DNA from: an uncultured Methanoregulaceae archaeon
GTDB lineage: Archaea > Halobacteriota > Methanomicrobia > Methanomicrobiales > Methanospirillaceae
Direction of reading: 5' to 3'
DNA: 64,000 nucleotides
Assembly (NCBI GenBank): GCA_963841015.1
Contig: CAWJAX010000003.1
Coordinates: 192,001 to 256,000, forward strand
Below, piece after piece: positions 26,980 to 38,406 of this stretch. The notes under the pieces were generated by a model. It saw only the letters and a list, made by a program, of their open reading frames with translations. It had not been told where the DNA came from and searched no databases. A program made the translations under genes and the position numbers. Position 1 is the first letter of the stretch; every line of letters begins with the position of its first letter.

Positions 26980-27510
26980 TCATGCTGCACCCTGGTATCG
27001 CTCTTCCTTCTGAAAATAACCCATCAGGATAGAGAACAGGCCAAACACAAAGGCGAAAGTGCCAATAATGATGATGATGAGATTTTTTGAATAATCAGGA
27101 AAATACCAGAGAAAAGCGGCAAGCAGGATAATAGCGGAAATGAACATACCCGGGATAAGGATATATTTGGTTTTTGGATGGGTGAGTGCAAGCGTGATAT
27201 CGGTGAACCCGTTATAACAGGCAATTCCCGCGATAATAAGCAGAAAAATGATCGCGAAGAATTGCTGCGCTAAAAATGAGAGAACTGCAAGAATGAGCAA
27301 TACTGCTGAAATACCAAACCAGAATAATGATTCATCGCTGTTTGAAGTGATGGCGAGGAAAAGAAAAACTGCGATAACCAGTCCGGTCAGGATAAGAAAT
27401 ATCACATAAAACGTTGCAAGCATCAATTCCAGATCGGGAAAAAGCAGAGCTAAAAGTCCAAAAATTACGCCGATAATGCCCCAGACAATGCATGATAAGC
27501 TTGTATTCAT
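26980..27510 (-). CDS. HdeD/DUF308-like 6-TM membrane protein
   Basis: WGIIGVIFGLLALLFP-type repeated helical hairpins. Confidence 0.7.
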   Translation of the reverse strand: MNTSLSCIVWGIIGVIFGLLALLFPDLELMLATFYVIFLILTGLVIAVFLFLAITSNSDESLFWFGISAVLLILAVLSFLAQQFFAIIFLLIIAGIACYNGFTDITLALTHPKTKYILIPGMFISAIILLAAFLWYFPDYSKNLIIIIIGTFAFVFGLFSILMGYFQKEERYQGAA

Positions 27511-27781
27511 GGTAGTATGACCGTAAAGGAATCGGTTTGCACGGGTTTCCTAATACCGTGTTAGTGCCACAACTACAAAATTTATCCTATTTTTCCGCCA
27601 CTCCATTACCACAAATATTCACCTGTTACCCTCAACCGGGTCATCGATTCTAAAAAAGACCGGAATCCCTTTTTGTGCTTTTTGCTGGTAGTTAACTAGT
27701 CTTTCTTACTACTATCTTGTACTATTTTCAATATATGACAAGTATACAAACATTTAATTATTATCGTGCAACTTTAGGAGT

Positions 27782-28213
27782 ATGGATAACTTAACCCTTA
27801 AAATCAAGAAGCGTGCATTTCCGAGCCACGGACGGGTGCGAATCCACGAGTCGAGACTTACGGATCTCCAGATTGTCAACGGCGATCACATTGATCTCAT
27901 CAATGAAACTGCGAAAAAAACAGTCACGGTCACTGTTATTTCTGACACCATGGTTGGAAAAGATGAAATCCGGGTCAGTGAAGAGGACCTGAAGTCTCTC
28001 GGACTCAAGGAAGGCGAAGAGGTATCGATTAAAAAATCCCTCGGGATCAAGGAAAAGGCATCCAAAGCTGCCGCTGATGTATCGGCCGGGGCCAAGAAAG
28101 CCGGAAGTGATGTAGCAACCGGAGCGAAGAAAGCCGGGGCTGCCGTGGGAAAAGCCGCTGGCAGTGCAGCTGACAGCGTGAAGAAAAAGGTGAAAGGAAA
28201 AGATGACCTTTAA
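27782..28213 (+). CDS. Stand-alone CDC48/VAT-N-like double-psi beta-barrel protein with Ala/Lys 11-mer repeat tail
   Basis: Two internal repeats GRVRI....L..L.I..GD.I and IRVS...LK.LGL..GEEV; TTTAATTA TATA at 27753 and AGGAG RBS. Confidence 0.7.
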   Translation: MDNLTLKIKKRAFPSHGRVRIHESRLTDLQIVNGDHIDLINETAKKTVTVTVISDTMVGKDEIRVSEEDLKSLGLKEGEEVSIKKSLGIKEKASKAAADVSAGAKKAGSDVATGAKKAGAAVGKAAGSAADSVKKKVKGKDDL

Positions 28214-28261
28214 CCTCCCGGGGAATCCCGGTAAGGTGGTTCAACGTACTAAATCGGAGAG

Positions 28262-28681
28262 GTGATTCATATTATTCCAACATCACAAACAACTACAATT
28301 GTTGCGACATCGCCGCCATTAATTAATGACACGTCGTTTCTGGTAATTCTTGCAATTTTTATCCTTATCTTTATCTGGCTCATTGTCCGTGAATTTCGCC
28401 TTAAGGATGCCGCGAAACATAGCACCCAGCTGGAACAGGACAAGCTTAAAATCATCCAGATGGATGCAGCAACCAAGGCTTATCCGTTTACCCGGCTATC
28501 GCCAGAACAGACAGCAGAGATCAGAAACGTGGAAGACGAGAATATAACTCTCGAGACAAATATTTTTGCCCGGGAAAAACTCGTCGAGAAGCGACTTGAC
28601 AGGCTCGAGAATTATGTCAAGGTCAGAAAACTGGACAATATGATAGGTAAGATTCAGACAGAAGAGAAGAAGGTGAAATAA
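28262..28681 (+). CDS. Single-TM coiled-coil protein
   Basis: FLVILAIFILIFIWLIV TM helix followed by heptad-rich C-terminus. Confidence 0.8.
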   Translation: MIHIIPTSQTTTIVATSPPLINDTSFLVILAIFILIFIWLIVREFRLKDAAKHSTQLEQDKLKIIQMDAATKAYPFTRLSPEQTAEIRNVEDENITLETNIFAREKLVEKRLDRLENYVKVRKLDNMIGKIQTEEKKVK

Positions 28682-28683
28682 GA

Positions 28684-28989
28684 ATGAATACGGTTGTTAA
28701 CCAGACCGAAACAGCCCCGGGATACTGGAGCAAGGTCTCCAATTTTTCTGCGTCAGTCGGGTCAAAAGTTCCCACGTTTGATAAATCCATGGATGCATAT
28801 TTCGACCAGAACTTTGCGTCCATTATTGAGGAATGGGATCTCTTAACCGATAGTGATCTCCACAAGCTCGAATACCGGCTTTCCGAGATAACCAATGAAA
28901 TCAGCACCCTTTTTGCAGAAAAAATGGTGATAGAAAAACGAGTCGGAAACCTGGACATTCTGGTTTCTTCCATGGAGGGGTCAAAATGA
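28684..28989 (+). CDS. Soluble coiled-coil protein, EEWDL-motif paralog 1
   Basis: DAYFDQNFASIIEEWDL; starts 2 nt after the previous stop. Confidence 0.8.
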   Translation: MNTVVNQTETAPGYWSKVSNFSASVGSKVPTFDKSMDAYFDQNFASIIEEWDLLTDSDLHKLEYRLSEITNEISTLFAEKMVIEKRVGNLDILVSSMEGSK

Positions 28990-29207
28990 GCGTCATGAAA
29001 AATTACATGAATGCCTATGTTGACCGGCGGATGAAATCTGTTGTTGAGGAATGGGACCTTTCCCGGAAGGATGATATTACAGATTTCACGGCACGGCTCG
29101 ATGCTATCGAACAGGAAATCCCGCGGCTGAAAGCGTCCAAAAAAGCGAGTGTGGAAAAACTGACAGAACTTGAAATCCGTGCACGAAAACTGAAGGAGAG
29201 GATCTGA
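28986..29207 (+). CDS. Soluble coiled-coil protein, EEWDL-motif paralog 2
   Basis: NAYVDRRMKSVVEEWDL; ATGA overlap, GGAGG RBS. Confidence 0.8.
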   Translation: MSVMKNYMNAYVDRRMKSVVEEWDLSRKDDITDFTARLDAIEQEIPRLKASKKASVEKLTELEIRARKLKERI

Positions 29208-29208
29208 T

Positions 29209-29565
29209 ATGGACTGGTTTGAATTCATTATTCTTGTCCTCTTCATAGCGGCCGCATTTTTCCTTATCTATTATTACTTCCGTGGGGCTAAAGGGAACCT
29301 TTCGGTGACTCGACCCGTAGAGAGCCGGGTGGACGAGTACCTTGACCGCAGGTTTGAAAGTCTGGTCGATGAATGGGAACTGGTAAACCAGCCAAAACTC
29401 CAGAGGTTCAAGGAACAGAAATCAAAAGAACTTGAACAGGATGAGGCCCGCATTAACGATTTAAAGAAATTCGAACTGGATCTGGAGAGTTCCCTGACAA
29501 ACCTGGAGACCCGGCTTGACACTATTGAAAAAGGACTGGCTCAAAAAGGAAGCGCCAAAAAATAA
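29209..29565 (+). CDS. Single-TM coiled-coil protein, EEWDL-motif paralog 3
   Basis: N-terminal TM, DEYLDRRFESLVDEWEL; 1-nt gap to previous gene. Confidence 0.8.
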   Translation: MDWFEFIILVLFIAAAFFLIYYYFRGAKGNLSVTRPVESRVDEYLDRRFESLVDEWELVNQPKLQRFKEQKSKELEQDEARINDLKKFELDLESSLTNLETRLDTIEKGLAQKGSAKK

Positions 29566-29614
29566 GACCGCCGGCAGTGATCTCTTCCTTGAATTAAAAG
29601 AAGAGATCACCGTA

Positions 29615-29836
29615 ATGCGGAAACAAGGTGAGCCACCGGTTAAAAATCCCCACAGTTTCGCACAATATATGTGTGATCTGTGTAACTCTCCCTTTACAAT
29701 TTCTGAGCTCCGGCAATGTGTCTTGTGTGGCCGATGGGCTTGTAATACCTGCTGGACTGACCAGTATTACACCTGCAAATCATGTACAGGAATTATTAAA
29801 ATCCATTCAATACGAAAAACTCCCTTTAGAGAGTAG
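29615..29836 (+). CDS. 8-Cys binuclear zinc-finger protein
   Basis: CDLC...CVLCGRWACNTC...CKSC; start placed at MRKQG. Confidence 0.75.
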   Translation: MRKQGEPPVKNPHSFAQYMCDLCNSPFTISELRQCVLCGRWACNTCWTDQYYTCKSCTGIIKIHSIRKTPFRE

Positions 29837-30110
29837 GGATGAGCAGATAATTAACAAGTCAGATAATCTGTTTTAATAAATTGCCGAAATCCCCTTTTTT
29901 CTCGTGAATTCCAGTATCAGCACGTACAGTAACCGGACAGGTATAATGAAAGGGGGACATGCCCTTCCTCCCTTTTCGGCCCTGAATAACGAGCACTGAT
30001 TTCAGGTTACCTTTTTTGGAGTTATCGTTTTTTTGGGGCGGGAGCCGAAGCTAAGGTGTAAAGACACGAGGGGTGCTCAGTTTTAAAAAATAGTCCAGTA
30101 TAGCCTTTTT

Positions 30111-32071: not shown

Positions 32072-32524
32072 TTAGCGCTCAATCAGATGGATATGCTCAT
32101 CCGTCTTTTTTGCAAGCTCACTGCGACCCTGCAAACGGGCCACATCCGAAATGGCTTCGAGTACATGGACGGATTCTTCCAGAAATGAAAGAACATCGGC
32201 AGGAAACATTTCAATCCCGTACTCATCCAGCATGGACGCAGCTATCTGGCGGTGATCGAGACCATTTTCCCGGAGTTCGATTACTTTTTTTGCAAATTTT
32301 TTCTCGGGGCAACCGCATAACGGGGAGTCTTTGCAATCACAGCGGAGGAAGTCATTGAAAAAAGCGAGTATCTGTTCCCTCACGGCAAAATCGAGCGCAT
32401 CATAATCAAGGCGCGACGAGAGGGTTTCAAGCATGGTCCCGGAAAATGCCAGTTCGGGAAGACGAAAACCTGCAAGCCGTTCTAATTTTTTTGCATGACG
32501 AAATCGTGCCCGATCAGCGATCAA
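32072..32524 (-). CDS. DUF5814-like protein (resembles the C-terminal Zn domain of methanogen helicases)
   Basis: DFLRCDCKDSPLCGCPE...YGIEMFPADVLSFLE. Confidence 0.75.
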   Translation of the reverse strand: MIADRARFRHAKKLERLAGFRLPELAFSGTMLETLSSRLDYDALDFAVREQILAFFNDFLRCDCKDSPLCGCPEKKFAKKVIELRENGLDHRQIAASMLDEYGIEMFPADVLSFLEESVHVLEAISDVARLQGRSELAKKTDEHIHLIER

Positions 32525-33153
32525 TCCTCGTCTCCTACACCCTCATCAAAGTTTTTCAGTGAGGCCATCGCCTCCCCCATCCGCTCGCACTCGATAAGCC
32601 ACTCATCAAAAAGGGTTGTCTGTTCAATATCATCTTTCACGTATTTACCACAGCAGGATGCTCCGTCAATGACACTGGCGCCGATATTGGCAGCTGACTC
32701 GAGTGCCTGCTCCATATCCTTCTCAATATCATCCCTGCCCTTCTTGACAAGGGTTTTGATATCTTTGTTAAATCCACCGGCAAGGTACAATCTGCAGGAA
32801 GCAAAGAGCACAAGTTTGGGGAGCTGCAGGATCTCAACGATTTCTCCAAGATCTCCCTCGGGGGCAGCTGACATTACAATCATTTCAACCTGCGAGAGCT
32901 TGTCAACCGCTTCTTCAAAAGTATACCGTTTGTTCTGGTAAAGCTTGATGATCTTTAATACCGATATGGTGATATCAACTGAGAAACTGTCAAGAACCCG
33001 GAATCCTTCAGGCAGCTCCTCGCTTTTGGGATCAGCTTCGAAGCTCGATTCTTTGAGAGTTTTCAACCAGTTGTCCCAGCGTTCCTGATTGTAAAAAATA
33101 TAAAACAACTTGAGCGGTTCAGCTTCTGTTTTTTTACCTGCCTTTTTTGCCAT
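32521..33153 (-). CDS. DUF2150 family protein
   Basis: FYNQERWDNW N-terminal motif, GASVIDG. Confidence 0.75.
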   Translation of the reverse strand: MAKKAGKKTEAEPLKLFYIFYNQERWDNWLKTLKESSFEADPKSEELPEGFRVLDSFSVDITISVLKIIKLYQNKRYTFEEAVDKLSQVEMIVMSAAPEGDLGEIVEILQLPKLVLFASCRLYLAGGFNKDIKTLVKKGRDDIEKDMEQALESAANIGASVIDGASCCGKYVKDDIEQTTLFDEWLIECERMGEAMASLKNFDEGVGDED

Positions 33154-36927: not shown

Positions 36928-38406
36928 TCAGAGGAGTTTCTCTGTATAGCGGATTACTTCTTTGAGTGCCTTGACCCGGGCATACCATTTATTGTCCGAC
37001 TCAATAACAATCCACGGGGCATAGGGAGTGTTGGTACGGGCCAGCATCTCATCAACCGCAACATCATAGAGATCCCATTTCTCCCGGTTTCTCCAGTCAT
37101 CTTCAGTTATTTTGTATTGCTTGAGGGGATCCTTCTCCCGCTGGCTGAACCGTTTGAGTTGTTCATCCTTATCTATCTCAAGCCAGAACTTGACCATTCC
37201 CCCGCCACTGCTCTCGACATAGTCCTGCTCCATTTCGTTTATTTCCTGGTACGCCCGTTCCCACTCGGTTTCCGAACAGAACCCTTCCACACGTTCAACC
37301 AGGACACGCCCGTACCAGCTCCGGTCATAGATTGCAAAATGCCCGGCTTTCGGGTAGTGACGGATAAACCTCCAGAGGTAGTGGTGTTCTTTCTCATAGT
37401 CATTTGGTGCTGCTACCGGTATAACATCATATCCCAGCGGGTTGATATAACGGGCAAGACGGGTGATATTCCCTCCTTTTCCGGCAGCATCCCAACCCTC
37501 ATAGACAATGATGAACGGAATTTTCCGTTTAAAGAGCAGGTAATTGATCTCAAGCATCTCGATCTGCAGGCCGTTGAGCATATTCTGACAGTCTTCTTTT
37601 GAATAAGATACACTGACAGAAGATTTTCTCGGGACAGGATTTTTCGGAGGCTTGGAAATACTTTTCTGCCGTGCCTTTTTTGCCCGCTCTTCTGTTTCAA
37701 AAGCAACTCTTTTTTCGAGCGTTTTTACTAATATTGAATATACCCTGAAAATGGTATACTTCCTGTCGGTGGATTCGATAACATGCCAGGGTGCATAATC
37801 GGTATCGGTCTTTTCAATGAATTCATCAATAATCGGAAGATAGGTATCATAACTGTGATGGAAATCCCAGATACTTGGTGTCACCAGCCAGGCAGTAAGC
37901 GGGTTCCTCTCACGCTCCAGTAACCTGAGTTTCTGTTCGTCTTTGCTGATATGTAAAAAGAATTTGACGATAATTGCACCGCTGTCACTCAGCTGGCGTT
38001 CAAAAACCGATATGGAATTAATCTCATCCTTGAGCGATTTTTTCCAGCCGATGCTGGATAGTTTTTCTGCAAGTGCCCTGCTGTACCAGCTGCGGGCAAA
38101 AAGGGCAATTCGCCCTTTTGAAGGAGTTTTTACCCAGAATCTCCACATGAAAGGGCGTGCCCGTTCTTCATCTGTGGCTTTATCGGTTGCATGAAGGGTA
38201 AACCCACGGGGATCTAGAGACTGGATAATCTCCCTGGTGGCCATGGTAATCCCGGCAGCATTCCAGCCTTCGATGACAATTATGGTGGGGATCTTCAGAT
38301 CGCGAAGTGTTCGCTGGAGGACGCTGAGGCGCTCTTTTAACGGGGGCAGGGATTCATCAAAAGTCTTATCATCAATAGTTTTTGTTAAATCATATTTTTC
38401 AAACAT
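36928..38406 (-). CDS. Two-domain polyphosphate kinase 2 (class II, polyP:AMP phosphotransferase)
   Basis: Degenerate N-domain EGWNAAG/ARSWY plus intact EGWDAAGKGG/DRSWYGRVLVERVEG. Confidence 0.92.
   Translation of the reverse strand: MFEKYDLTKTIDDKTFDESLPPLKERLSVLQRTLRDLKIPTIIVIEGWNAAGITMATREIIQSLDPRGFTLHATDKATDEERARPFMWRFWVKTPSKGRIALFARSWYSRALAEKLSSIGWKKSLKDEINSISVFERQLSDSGAIIVKFFLHISKDEQKLRLLERERNPLTAWLVTPSIWDFHHSYDTYLPIIDEFIEKTDTDYAPWHVIESTDRKYTIFRVYSILVKTLEKRVAFETEERAKKARQKSISKPPKNPVPRKSSVSVSYSKEDCQNMLNGLQIEMLEINYLLFKRKIPFIIVYEGWDAAGKGGNITRLARYINPLGYDVIPVAAPNDYEKEHHYLWRFIRHYPKAGHFAIYDRSWYGRVLVERVEGFCSETEWERAYQEINEMEQDYVESSGGGMVKFWLEIDKDEQLKRFSQREKDPLKQYKITEDDWRNREKWDLYDVAVDEMLARTNTPYAPWIVIESDNKWYARVKALKEVIRYTEKLL

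Follow-up and report, generated by a model that had tools for sequence, protein, structure and literature searches.

In the 64,000-nucleotide window analysed here (positions 192,001 to 256,000 of contig CAWJAX010000003.1, assembly GCA_963841015.1, from an uncultured Methanoregulaceae archaeon), six co-oriented open reading frames (ORFs), g1 to g6, occupy positions 27782-29836 of the plus strand (Table 1). An initial annotation of the locus had described six co-oriented genes with gaps of +2, -4 and +1 nt between the middle four, and the ORF coordinates agree: these are the spacings of g2/g3, g3/g4 and g4/g5, and g1 and g2 lie 48 nt apart. With the TTG taken as the start of g6, its first 50 nt (29516-29565) coincide, in another frame, with the end of g5. 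The overlap is probably real, because the g6 N-terminus encoded from the TTG (‘M.LWKK’) is kept in 20 of 20 aligned orthologs, several of which have an ATG start; judged from the sequences, both frames of the overlap seem to be under selection. None of the six proteins matched an enzyme family in Pfam or NCBIfam, which is in line with the earlier observation that the products lack enzyme motifs.

Table 1. Coordinates of the six genes and of other features of the window.
Feature	Position	Strand	Description
g1	27782-28213	+	143 aa; modelled as a double-psi beta barrel of Cdc48/p97-N type that stands alone (residues 1-88), then a tail rich in Lys, Ala and Gly and a conserved acidic-Leu C-terminus
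g2	28262-28681	+	139 aa, GTG start; predicted single-pass membrane protein (N-out/C-in), cytoplasmic helix - PF.R.SPE loop - helix
g3	28684-28989	+	101 aa; soluble paralog, Y-F-D...EEW-L motif, then predicted coiled coil
g4	28986-29207	+	73 aa; minimal soluble paralog, motif and predicted coiled coil only
g5	29209-29565	+	118 aa; predicted membrane-anchored paralog: N-terminal membrane helix, motif, coiled coil
g6	29516-29836	+	106 aa from TTG, ATG at 29615; Prok-RING_2 binuclear zinc finger, 8 invariant Cys, conserved N-terminal helix
A/T-rich promoter-like boxes	27726-27764	+	AATATATG at 27730-27737 and ATTTAATTATTAT at 27752-27764; upstream of g1
Oligo-T tract	29895-29900	+	likely archaeal transcription stop
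DUF5814 and DUF2150 genes	32072-33153	-	adjacent, 4-nt overlap; E 6.6e-52 and 4.8e-60; conserved archaeal proteins
PPK2	36928-38406	-	491 aa, two PPK2 stretches, E 2.5e-135; two-domain polyphosphate kinase 2, 7.1 kb downstream

The six genes are conserved as a block. The genome of the window contains one match to PF14445, the Pfam family of the g6 zinc finger. In a sample of 401 genomes of the phylum, strong matches to this family (E 8.5e-25 or better) were found in 29 genomes, namely that of the window, 26 of the 28 others of its family and two of seven from a second family of the order; a further 18 genomes gave weak matches only (E 5e-7 to 9e-4). The profile of the g3-g5 paralogs gave exactly three adjacent matches in each of the same 29 genomes, and nothing in the rest of the sample except a coiled-coil match in a 1337-aa ORF. 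Two family genomes that are 99% complete have neither the finger nor the paralogs. Gene order in relatives, which the initial annotation had proposed as a check, proved to be strictly conserved: in 14-kb regions around the finger from 20 genomes in 10 genera (the genus of the window, with further species, seven more of its family and two of the second family), the six genes are colinear in 20 of 20 loci. All six were recovered by tblastn in 19 of these loci, and the missing g2 of the remaining one (L051) was recovered by a hidden Markov model with E 1.6e-45. A pattern scan for the finger, with one genome per species, returned 139 relatives, and we analysed the contigs of the best 80 of the 139. 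Their titles name Methanoregula, Methanoregulaceae, Methanolinea or Methanomicrobiales, apart from one Methanobacteriota and two metagenome-assembled genomes titled Theionarchaea. The order barrel, g2, paralog, paralog, paralog, finger is present in all 68 of these contigs that extend at least 2300 nt upstream of the finger, one gene being divided between two ORFs in two of the 68; the remaining 12 comprise six complete loci and six that a contig end truncates. No flanking gene is conserved around the cluster across 21 loci, where the flanks differ from locus to locus and the sole recurrent family is that of PAS histidine kinases, multi-copy and at varying positions. From these comparisons of sequence, the six genes are most likely one strongly conserved operon.

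The two Theionarchaea-titled contigs (L119 and L134) carry a finger at 52-56% identity, and L134 has the whole six-gene set, a full set having been recognised by eye in one Theionarchaea-titled locus; either the operon occurs in a second lineage, or these contigs were assigned to the wrong organism in binning.

Transcription signals were seen at both ends of the block. In 12 of 21 loci, the stretch 16-50 nt ahead of the g1 start contains an 8-nt box that is A/T-only or TATA-like, compared with 7.8% of random 35-nt windows, and near-TATA boxes are discernible by eye in the remaining loci. Past the g6 stop, a run of five or more T within 60 nt occurs in 14 of 21 loci, compared with 10% of random windows; the T6 of the window itself starts at nt 59 after the stop and was counted as a miss. 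Contigs from sediment metatranscriptome libraries (four runs of three studies) span 27.86-29.89 kb. They bridge g1-g2 (X1 record 1 and X2 record 9), g2-g3-g4-g5 (X2 record 10) and g5-g6 (X1 records 6 and 7), and X1 record 8 ends at 29893. No RNA contig fell on 27400-27767 or 29976-30067, within the flanks of 200-370 nt that had been added to the query, which is a weak hint that these uncovered flanks mark the transcript ends. Overall, the RNA-library cover is consistent with an expressed operon.

The core of the block is formed by g3, g4 and g5. The three motif strings that had been reported in consecutive products are found letter for letter in these proteins, and their description as three paralogs holds in profile-profile comparison: hhalign gave 98.5% (E 3.7e-15) for g3-g4, 98.2% (E 3.6e-14) for g4-g5 and 97.7% (E 1.8e-12) for g3-g5. 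At the level of sequence profiles this is far past chance, and the three are true paralogs. Neither their family nor g2 has a Pfam or NCBIfam model. The g4 profile found only generic coiled-coil matches among PDB sequences, the best being a leucine-rich repeat protein of a flagellar map at E 7e-4. Searches for anti-phage defence and viral gene families likewise gave nothing meaningful: the matches in PADLOC and PHROGs were coiled-coil noise (best E 0.0013 and 0.0024, respectively), and no g5 relative was found on the viral contigs of IMG/VR.

To describe how the three paralogs may associate, we modelled residues 33-118 of g5 and 28-101 of g3 with the whole of g4 as partner, each with its own alignment of 17-20 rows. 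The heterotrimer reached an interaction prediction score from aligned errors (ipSAE) of 0.76 in each of three runs, and the controls gave 0.01, 0.00 and 0.17; 58 of 80 solved complexes reach the score mark of the tool, as do 2 of 110 mismatched pairs. The three runs agree on at least 94% of contacts, and the predicted local distance difference test (pLDDT) of the partner, g4, is at least 85. Among the lowest-error contacts the offsets are constant, 37-38 for g5 minus g4 and 27-28 for g3 minus g4. These offsets match the homologous alignment of the paralogs, and therefore the modelled bundle is parallel and in register. The modelled interface comprises residues 39-97 of g3 and 37-110 of g5. The model thus predicts that g3, g4 and g5 form a three-helix coiled coil, parallel and in register, of which the conserved Y-x-D...EW-L entry is a part, and it supports binding among the three.

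Two of the four coiled-coil proteins, g2 and g5, appear to be anchored in the membrane, and here hydropathy agrees with the anchors assigned initially. The mean value of the best Kyte-Doolittle 19-mer is 2.9 both for g2 (19 orthologs) and for g5 (20 orthologs), and the corresponding values for g3 and g4, which have no hydrophobic helix, are 0.55 and -0.03. The mean number of Lys and Arg residues flanking the helix is 0.16 on the N-terminal side versus 3.95 on the C-terminal side in g2, and 0.0 versus 2.2 in g5, in the same two sets of orthologs. Each protein is therefore predicted to have one N-out/C-in membrane helix followed by a coiled coil, and we place both coiled coils in the cytoplasm because, by the positive-inside rule, the Lys and Arg residues lie past the helix. 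g2 is not a further paralog of g3-g5, since only the membrane helix aligns in profile-profile comparison. It matched no Pfam or NCBIfam family above cut-off, its profile found nothing below E 0.1 among PDB sequences, and its entries in the protein atlas are unnamed archaeal clusters only.

The first gene of the block encodes a small barrel. g1 scores 30.1 bits (E 5.6e-7) against Pfam CDC48_N (PF02359), below the cut-off of 35.1, and a genome-wide CDC48_N search also places it below the cut-off. The AlphaFold2 (AF2) model, made from a 20-row alignment, is better defined: the mean pLDDT of ten-residue blocks is 83-92 over residues 1-80 and 74 over residues 81-90, and it falls below 50 in the tail. 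Foldseek returned 273 PDB matches to this model at E <= 0.001. The best are p97/VCP/Cdc48 N domains and designed double-psi barrels, with E values from 1.5e-8, and the p97/Cdc48 N domains superpose with a root-mean-square deviation (rmsd) of 1.2-1.6 Å over 82-90 columns. The internal two-fold repeat of the barrel is discernible in the sequence. By the fold of its model, g1 is confirmed as a Cdc48/p97-N-type double-psi barrel, as the Cdc48/NSF-N-like barrel of the initial annotation had anticipated. It shares its fold with the N-terminal barrel of Cdc48, p97 and VAT; unlike these proteins, it stands alone, does not reach the Pfam cut-off and continues into a tail of 11-mer repeats. The second N subdomain and the AAA modules are absent from its 143 residues, and past residue 88 there is only the low-complexity tail. 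Two long ORFs bearing Cdc48_N, presumably AAA ATPases, lie elsewhere in the genome.

The tail of g1 has a regular character of its own. Over 20 tails its composition is 22% Lys, 18% Ala and 11% Gly, and the autocorrelation of hydrophobicity peaks at lags 4, 7, 11, 15, 18 and 22, with +0.42 at 11 and +0.45 at 22. On the basis of these sequences, the periodicity is that expected of an 11-residue pattern of amphipathic repeat helices. Eleven-residue repeats recall apolipoproteins, late embryogenesis abundant (LEA) proteins and synuclein, and one ortholog with a longer tail matches the family Apolipoprotein A1/A4/E at E 6.9e-7, below cut-off. The C-terminus is Asp/Glu-Leu in 18 of 20 aligned orthologs and Gly-Leu in one more. 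In two orthologs (L052:4834-5568 and L134:1843-2778), a C-terminal TrkA_C domain follows the repeat tail, with E 2.6e-9 and 4e-12, both above cut-off. In some lineages the barrel protein may be under the control of a small ligand, as this fusion to a ligand-binding RCK_C domain hints.

Public pipelines give quite different names to the relatives of g1. Many of the 120 relatives listed are labelled ‘formylmethanofuran dehydrogenase subunit D’ or ‘anaerobic selenocysteine-containing dehydrogenase’, and ‘AbrB/MazE antitoxin’ and ‘FeoA’ also occur. If the first of these names were taken at face value, g1 would be a FwdD-like subunit of a molybdopterin enzyme and the cluster an accessory to formylmethanofuran dehydrogenase. 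Besides the names, Pfam Molydop_binding speaks for such a subunit with 27.8 bits against a cut-off of 26.8, over a stretch of 28 residues. However, this match covers residues 61-88 only, a barrel element common to both folds; the NCBIfam model for FwdD (NF042908) scores 17 bits against a cut-off of 175; the cluster contains no other fwd or fmd gene; and the best structural matches of g1 are Cdc48/p97 N domains. A role for the cluster in formylmethanofuran dehydrogenase is hardly credible on this evidence. Because of the FwdD score, we judge the public names to be mislabels, which in all four cases, as far as sequence can tell, are made at the level of the fold.

The repeat tail and the paralogs together also bear on the proposal, made in the initial annotation, that the cluster scaffolds an inclusion. 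According to this explanation, g3-g5 would be phasins like PhaF and PhaI, coating a storage inclusion of polyhydroxyalkanoate (PHA), lipid or polyphosphate. PhaF carries a Lys/Ala-rich repeat tail, and the system described here has a repeat tail of that kind, with an apolipoprotein-like 11-mer pattern. The likeness to phasins and BMFP proteins that had been noticed by eye does recur as weak matches, but every score is below threshold. Phasin PF05597 gives 16.1 bits (E 0.012) for g3 and 15.6 bits (E 0.018) for g4, about half of the gathering score of 28.8, on the C-terminal leucine-zipper part of the profile. The phasin model TIGR01837 of NCBIfam gives 14.8 bits against a cut-off of 94.7, one remote relative of the paralogs has a weak Phasin match, and BMFP/UbiK PF04380 has no match at E <= 1 among the six proteins of the window. 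Moreover, unlike in PhaF and PhaI, it is the barrel protein that bears the repeat tail here, and the presence of two integral membrane proteins among the subunits suggests a location at the cell membrane rather than on a granule. The genome, which is 94% complete, gave no match to PF09712 or TIGR01836, the E and C subunits of PHA synthase, in a search limited to class III enzymes and in which 0 of 14 and 1 of 14 control genomes, respectively, gave a match. The PPK2 gene 7.1 kb downstream is real, and its distance had been offered as a possible link to a polyphosphate body; however, neither ppk2 nor any other flanking gene is conserved beside the cluster in relatives, and we regard its proximity as coincidental. 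The inclusion scaffold is not supported by these results and is very improbable.

The last gene of the block encodes the zinc finger that had been noted in the cluster, and its family is clear: g6 matches Pfam PF14445, Prok-RING_2, with E 6.2e-33 and 113.2 bits against a gathering score of 22.4, over profile positions 1-55 of 56. Eight cysteines (C53, C56, C68, C71, C76, C79, C87 and C90) do not vary across the 20 aligned sequences, and a C-x-x-C-G...C-x-x-C core is seen in the alignment. g6 therefore shares nearly the whole profile and the eight cysteines of this two-zinc treble-clef finger. Fused forms of the finger are limited to a single 195-aa protein, which offers no Rosetta-stone clue. 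The PF14445 family is said to go back to a paper by Burroughs, Iyer and Aravind in Mol Biosyst in 2011, which may already describe the g1-g6 neighbourhood.

The fold of g6 was compared by means of its AF2 model (pLDDT 81). Foldseek found no match to this model at E <= 0.001. The top three matches in VIA-align are FYVE domains, with Z scores of 6.0, 5.3 and 5.0, a range of 5-6 that the note of the tool itself calls middling, and with rmsd values of 3.2, 1.9 and 2.9 Å over 64, 51 and 57 residues; the best matches include the FYVE domains of endofin, Hrs and EEA1, and the next ten are mostly FYVE-like fingers of Rab effectors. According to the model, the predicted fold is thus nearest to FYVE-type fingers, nearer than to E3 RINGs. 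g6 resembles the fingers of endofin, Hrs, EEA1 and RUFY in fold and in a C-terminal helix past the last Cys pair; it differs from them in its middling Z scores and in its Pfam FYVE (PF01363) score of 18.6 bits, below the cut-off of 27.8. FYVE fingers bear a basic, histidine-rich motif that binds phosphatidylinositol 3-phosphate (PI3P), and no such motif is visible in the aligned g6 finger.

A barrel of the p97/Cdc48 N-domain type and a finger that Pfam files as RING could together be read as an adaptor for quality control or tagging at the membrane. The two modules would recognise tagged or unfolded membrane proteins for a Cdc48/VAT-proteasome system, or the finger would act like an E3 on a ubiquitin-like protein of archaea. 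A Cdc48-N-like domain is present in Ufd1 and a zinc finger in Npl4, and two long Cdc48_N-bearing ORFs lie elsewhere in the genome. However, no E1, E2, JAB peptidase, ubiquitin-like protein or AAA domain was found in the six proteins with Pfam and NCBIfam. The finger, filed as a RING, is one of six conserved parts. The conserved block consists of the six genes alone, with varying flanks, and the finger fold is nearest to the FYVE type and not to E3 RINGs. Such an adaptor would also leave the need for three paralogous coiled coils unexplained. In addition, according to PMC4029887, the paper that defined the prokaryotic RING fingers states that not every one of them acts in ubiquitin-related functions. 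We consider quality control or tagging unlikely, with somewhat more in its favour than the other alternatives discussed here.

The FYVE-like fold of g6 and the three-helix bundle with its membrane anchors would also suit a device for membrane tethering, fusion or sorting, either a bundle of the SNARE or BMFP type or an adaptor like those of the ESCRT-0/I complexes of endosomal sorting. Parallels are found in the ESCRT-I stalk, which consists of three long helices, and in Vps27/Hrs, which combines a FYVE finger with coiled coils (bioRxiv 10.1101/2024.02.06.579148). Against such a device, the two membrane helices, each at the N-terminus, are directed at one and the same membrane, and the FYVE resemblance of g6 is limited by its sub-cut-off Pfam score, its middling Z scores and the PI3P motif that is not visible. 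No match to Snf7/ESCRT-III (PF03357), MIT (PF04212) or PspA (PF04012) was found in the genome at E <= 0.01, in searches for which 1, 3 and 9 of 14 control genomes, respectively, gave a match. Membrane remodelling or tethering, as proposed in the initial annotation, is a possible role; in the form of the specific device described here, tethering, fusion or sorting is improbable.

We give about an even chance to the explanation that the cluster encodes a non-enzymatic scaffold or adaptor at the cytoplasmic face of the membrane, where this estimate applies to the architecture and to a generic role. We favour it because no enzyme was found, two subunits are membrane proteins, a heterotrimer is modelled, and two small binding modules are present. 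The six genes would form one operon for a non-enzymatic assembly on the cytoplasmic membrane face. In this assembly, g3, g4 and g5 would pair at homologous positions into the parallel three-helix coiled coil, and the N-terminal membrane helix of g5 would hold this stalk on the membrane. g2, a second single-pass coiled-coil protein and putatively an old partner of the g5-type subunit, would probably stand beside the stalk. One working end would be g1, with a Cdc48-N-type barrel for binding peptides and an apolipoprotein/LEA-like 11-mer amphipathic tail that could lie on lipid. The other would be g6, whose FYVE/RING-type two-zinc finger would serve as a protein- or membrane-binding module. The assembly as a whole would keep a client in place at the membrane, this client being a protein or else the surface of the membrane. 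Within this scaffold explanation, maintenance of the membrane surface, with the tail on lipid, and recruitment of a specific protein client share the probability perhaps equally. The initial annotation had proposed a hetero-oligomeric helical bundle tethered to the membrane; the predicted g3-g4-g5 heterotrimer and the two N-out/C-in helices agree with it, but we only infer the joining of g2 to the stalk and the docking of g1 and g6 on it, as well as the binding of the tail to lipid and the cellular role.

Several points weigh against the scaffold. The architecture is predicted from sequence and models, and the role is a generic one that names no client. The score of the heterotrimer expresses the confidence of the model in itself; both the alignments of 17-20 rows, which were our own, and the set-up with three chains depart from the calibration of the tool, which used pairs. 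Furthermore, coiled coils are readily placed next to each other by models of this type. The low-confidence tail of g1 may, as its model suggests, simply be disordered. The similarities to phasins, BMFP, FYVE and apolipoproteins are all below curated cut-offs. Finally, DNA may be present in RNA-library contigs, and such contigs are no proof that the genes share one transcript.

The closest analogy to the scaffold that we can offer is with the BMFP/UbiK (YqiC) proteins. In PMC9499169, BMFP/UbiK proteins are described as trimeric coiled coils with membrane-active N-termini, and the UbiJ-UbiK2 heterotrimer is proposed as the interface of the soluble Ubi metabolon with the membrane. The mode of action of the assembly could be likened to this three-helix bundle, which would link a soluble machine to the membrane. 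In both cases short proteins join C-terminal helices into a three-helix coiled coil at the membrane surface, in the present one according to the model, and a weak sequence echo of the helix entry is found in a remote relative of the g3-g5 family. In contrast to BMFP/UbiK, there are three distinct paralogs here, one of them with a true membrane helix, the hosts are archaea, and no match is above threshold. No SCP2 partner was seen in a Pfam scan of the cluster proteins, and the hosts are not known to make ubiquinone.

A bolder form of the argument combines the two working ends. The operon might encode an archaeal membrane-anchored adaptor for sorting or extraction, in which a FYVE-like finger and a Cdc48-N/Ufd1-like barrel, held out by the heterotrimeric stalk, capture membrane or tagged proteins and pass them to unfoldases of the Cdc48/VAT type. 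We regard this as a long shot. If true, it would be a prokaryotic counterpart of the adaptor layer of endoplasmic-reticulum-associated degradation or of ESCRT-0/I, its parts being those that serve eukaryotes in these tasks, and with a two-gene ancestor that persists in Methanobacteriales.

Such a two-gene form was found among more distant relatives. Compared with 1.84 billion representative proteins, the paralog profile had 383 matches at E <= 0.001 and, at the stricter limit of E <= 1e-10, 72; these were mostly proteins of 70-120 aa, together with long coiled-coil proteins that we regard as noise. Examination of 25 weaker hits revealed at least three remote groups bearing the same motif. In ten remote relatives no Pfam family scored above cut-off; the weak matches were to Phasin in one (E 0.013) and to BMFP in another (16.1 bits against 37.2), and a cluster look-up of the ten returned no names and short contigs only. 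One remote group has a membrane helix very similar to that of g5. A metagenome scan with this g5-like group gave 154 relatives, of which 80 were kept. In 42 of 42 kept loci of at least 5 kb, the single g5-like gene has a g2-like gene (E 1e-7 to 3e-18) immediately upstream, and no barrel, finger or second paralog was found in these 42 loci at E <= 1e-3. Ahead of the pair, 27 of 32 loci of at least 7 kb carry frhADGB, recognised by eye, and an oppositely oriented gene for methionine aminopeptidase; after the pair, dnaJ/dnaK/grpE are recognised by eye in some of the metagenome loci L189-L252. The adjacency to this operon of the F420-reducing hydrogenase may be functional or may reflect conserved gene order. 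The FrhA of a metagenome contig scores 661 bits against PDB 3zfs_A and 337 bits against the Methanothermococcus enzyme. The contigs look Methanobacteriales-like because FrhA scores higher against 3zfs_A, which we take to be the Methanothermobacter enzyme. From these gene arrangements, the ancestral module seems to be g2 with one membrane-anchored motif protein, and in the Methanoregulaceae form the motif protein seems to have been triplicated, and the barrel and the finger added. One contig encodes a g5-like protein with Gly/Lys/Glu/Ser repeats between the membrane helix and the motif; therefore, a repeat segment is a recurring part of the system.

Two further remote groups share a Y-x-D...E-(W/Y)-x-L motif, one soluble (P0077, P0084, P0086, P0088, P0091 and P0107) and one with a membrane helix (P0070, P0074, P0097, P0099 and P0123), all on short metagenome contigs.

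The initial annotation knew of no described methanogen system with this layout. Full-text searches turned up no paper on the operon, and mentions of Prok-RING_2 or PF14445 were confined to eukaryotic ubiquitin gene lists and a fish transcriptome; however, the zinc finger itself is already catalogued as Prok-RING_2. Four of the six proteins, g2-g5, which represent two gene families, belong to no curated family. As a whole, the cluster fits none of the known systems. The Methanoregulaceae, methanogens that use hydrogen, are common; wetland, sediment and freshwater are named in the titles of the contigs and in the run labels, and members of the family keep the six-gene block almost without exception. 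If the architecture is right, it would be a new kind of membrane-bound protein platform in archaea, in which a barrel of the Cdc48-N type is united with a finger of the FYVE/RING type, two modules employed by eukaryotes for extracting proteins and for sorting at membranes. The Methanobacteriales-like two-gene form offers a route to function in a genetically tractable methanogen. The finding also corrects the misleading public names of the g1 relatives.

Elsewhere around the cluster, the flanks in the window encode an FAD oxidoreductase, a DUF308 membrane protein, a META-domain protein, the DUF5814 and DUF2150 proteins, ThiI, a TPR protein and a PAS kinase. On the minus strand, a 207-aa ORF (28623-29246) runs across g2-g5, and similar antisense ORFs recur in relatives; from their sequence they look like shadow frames of the coiled-coil genes and not like genes.

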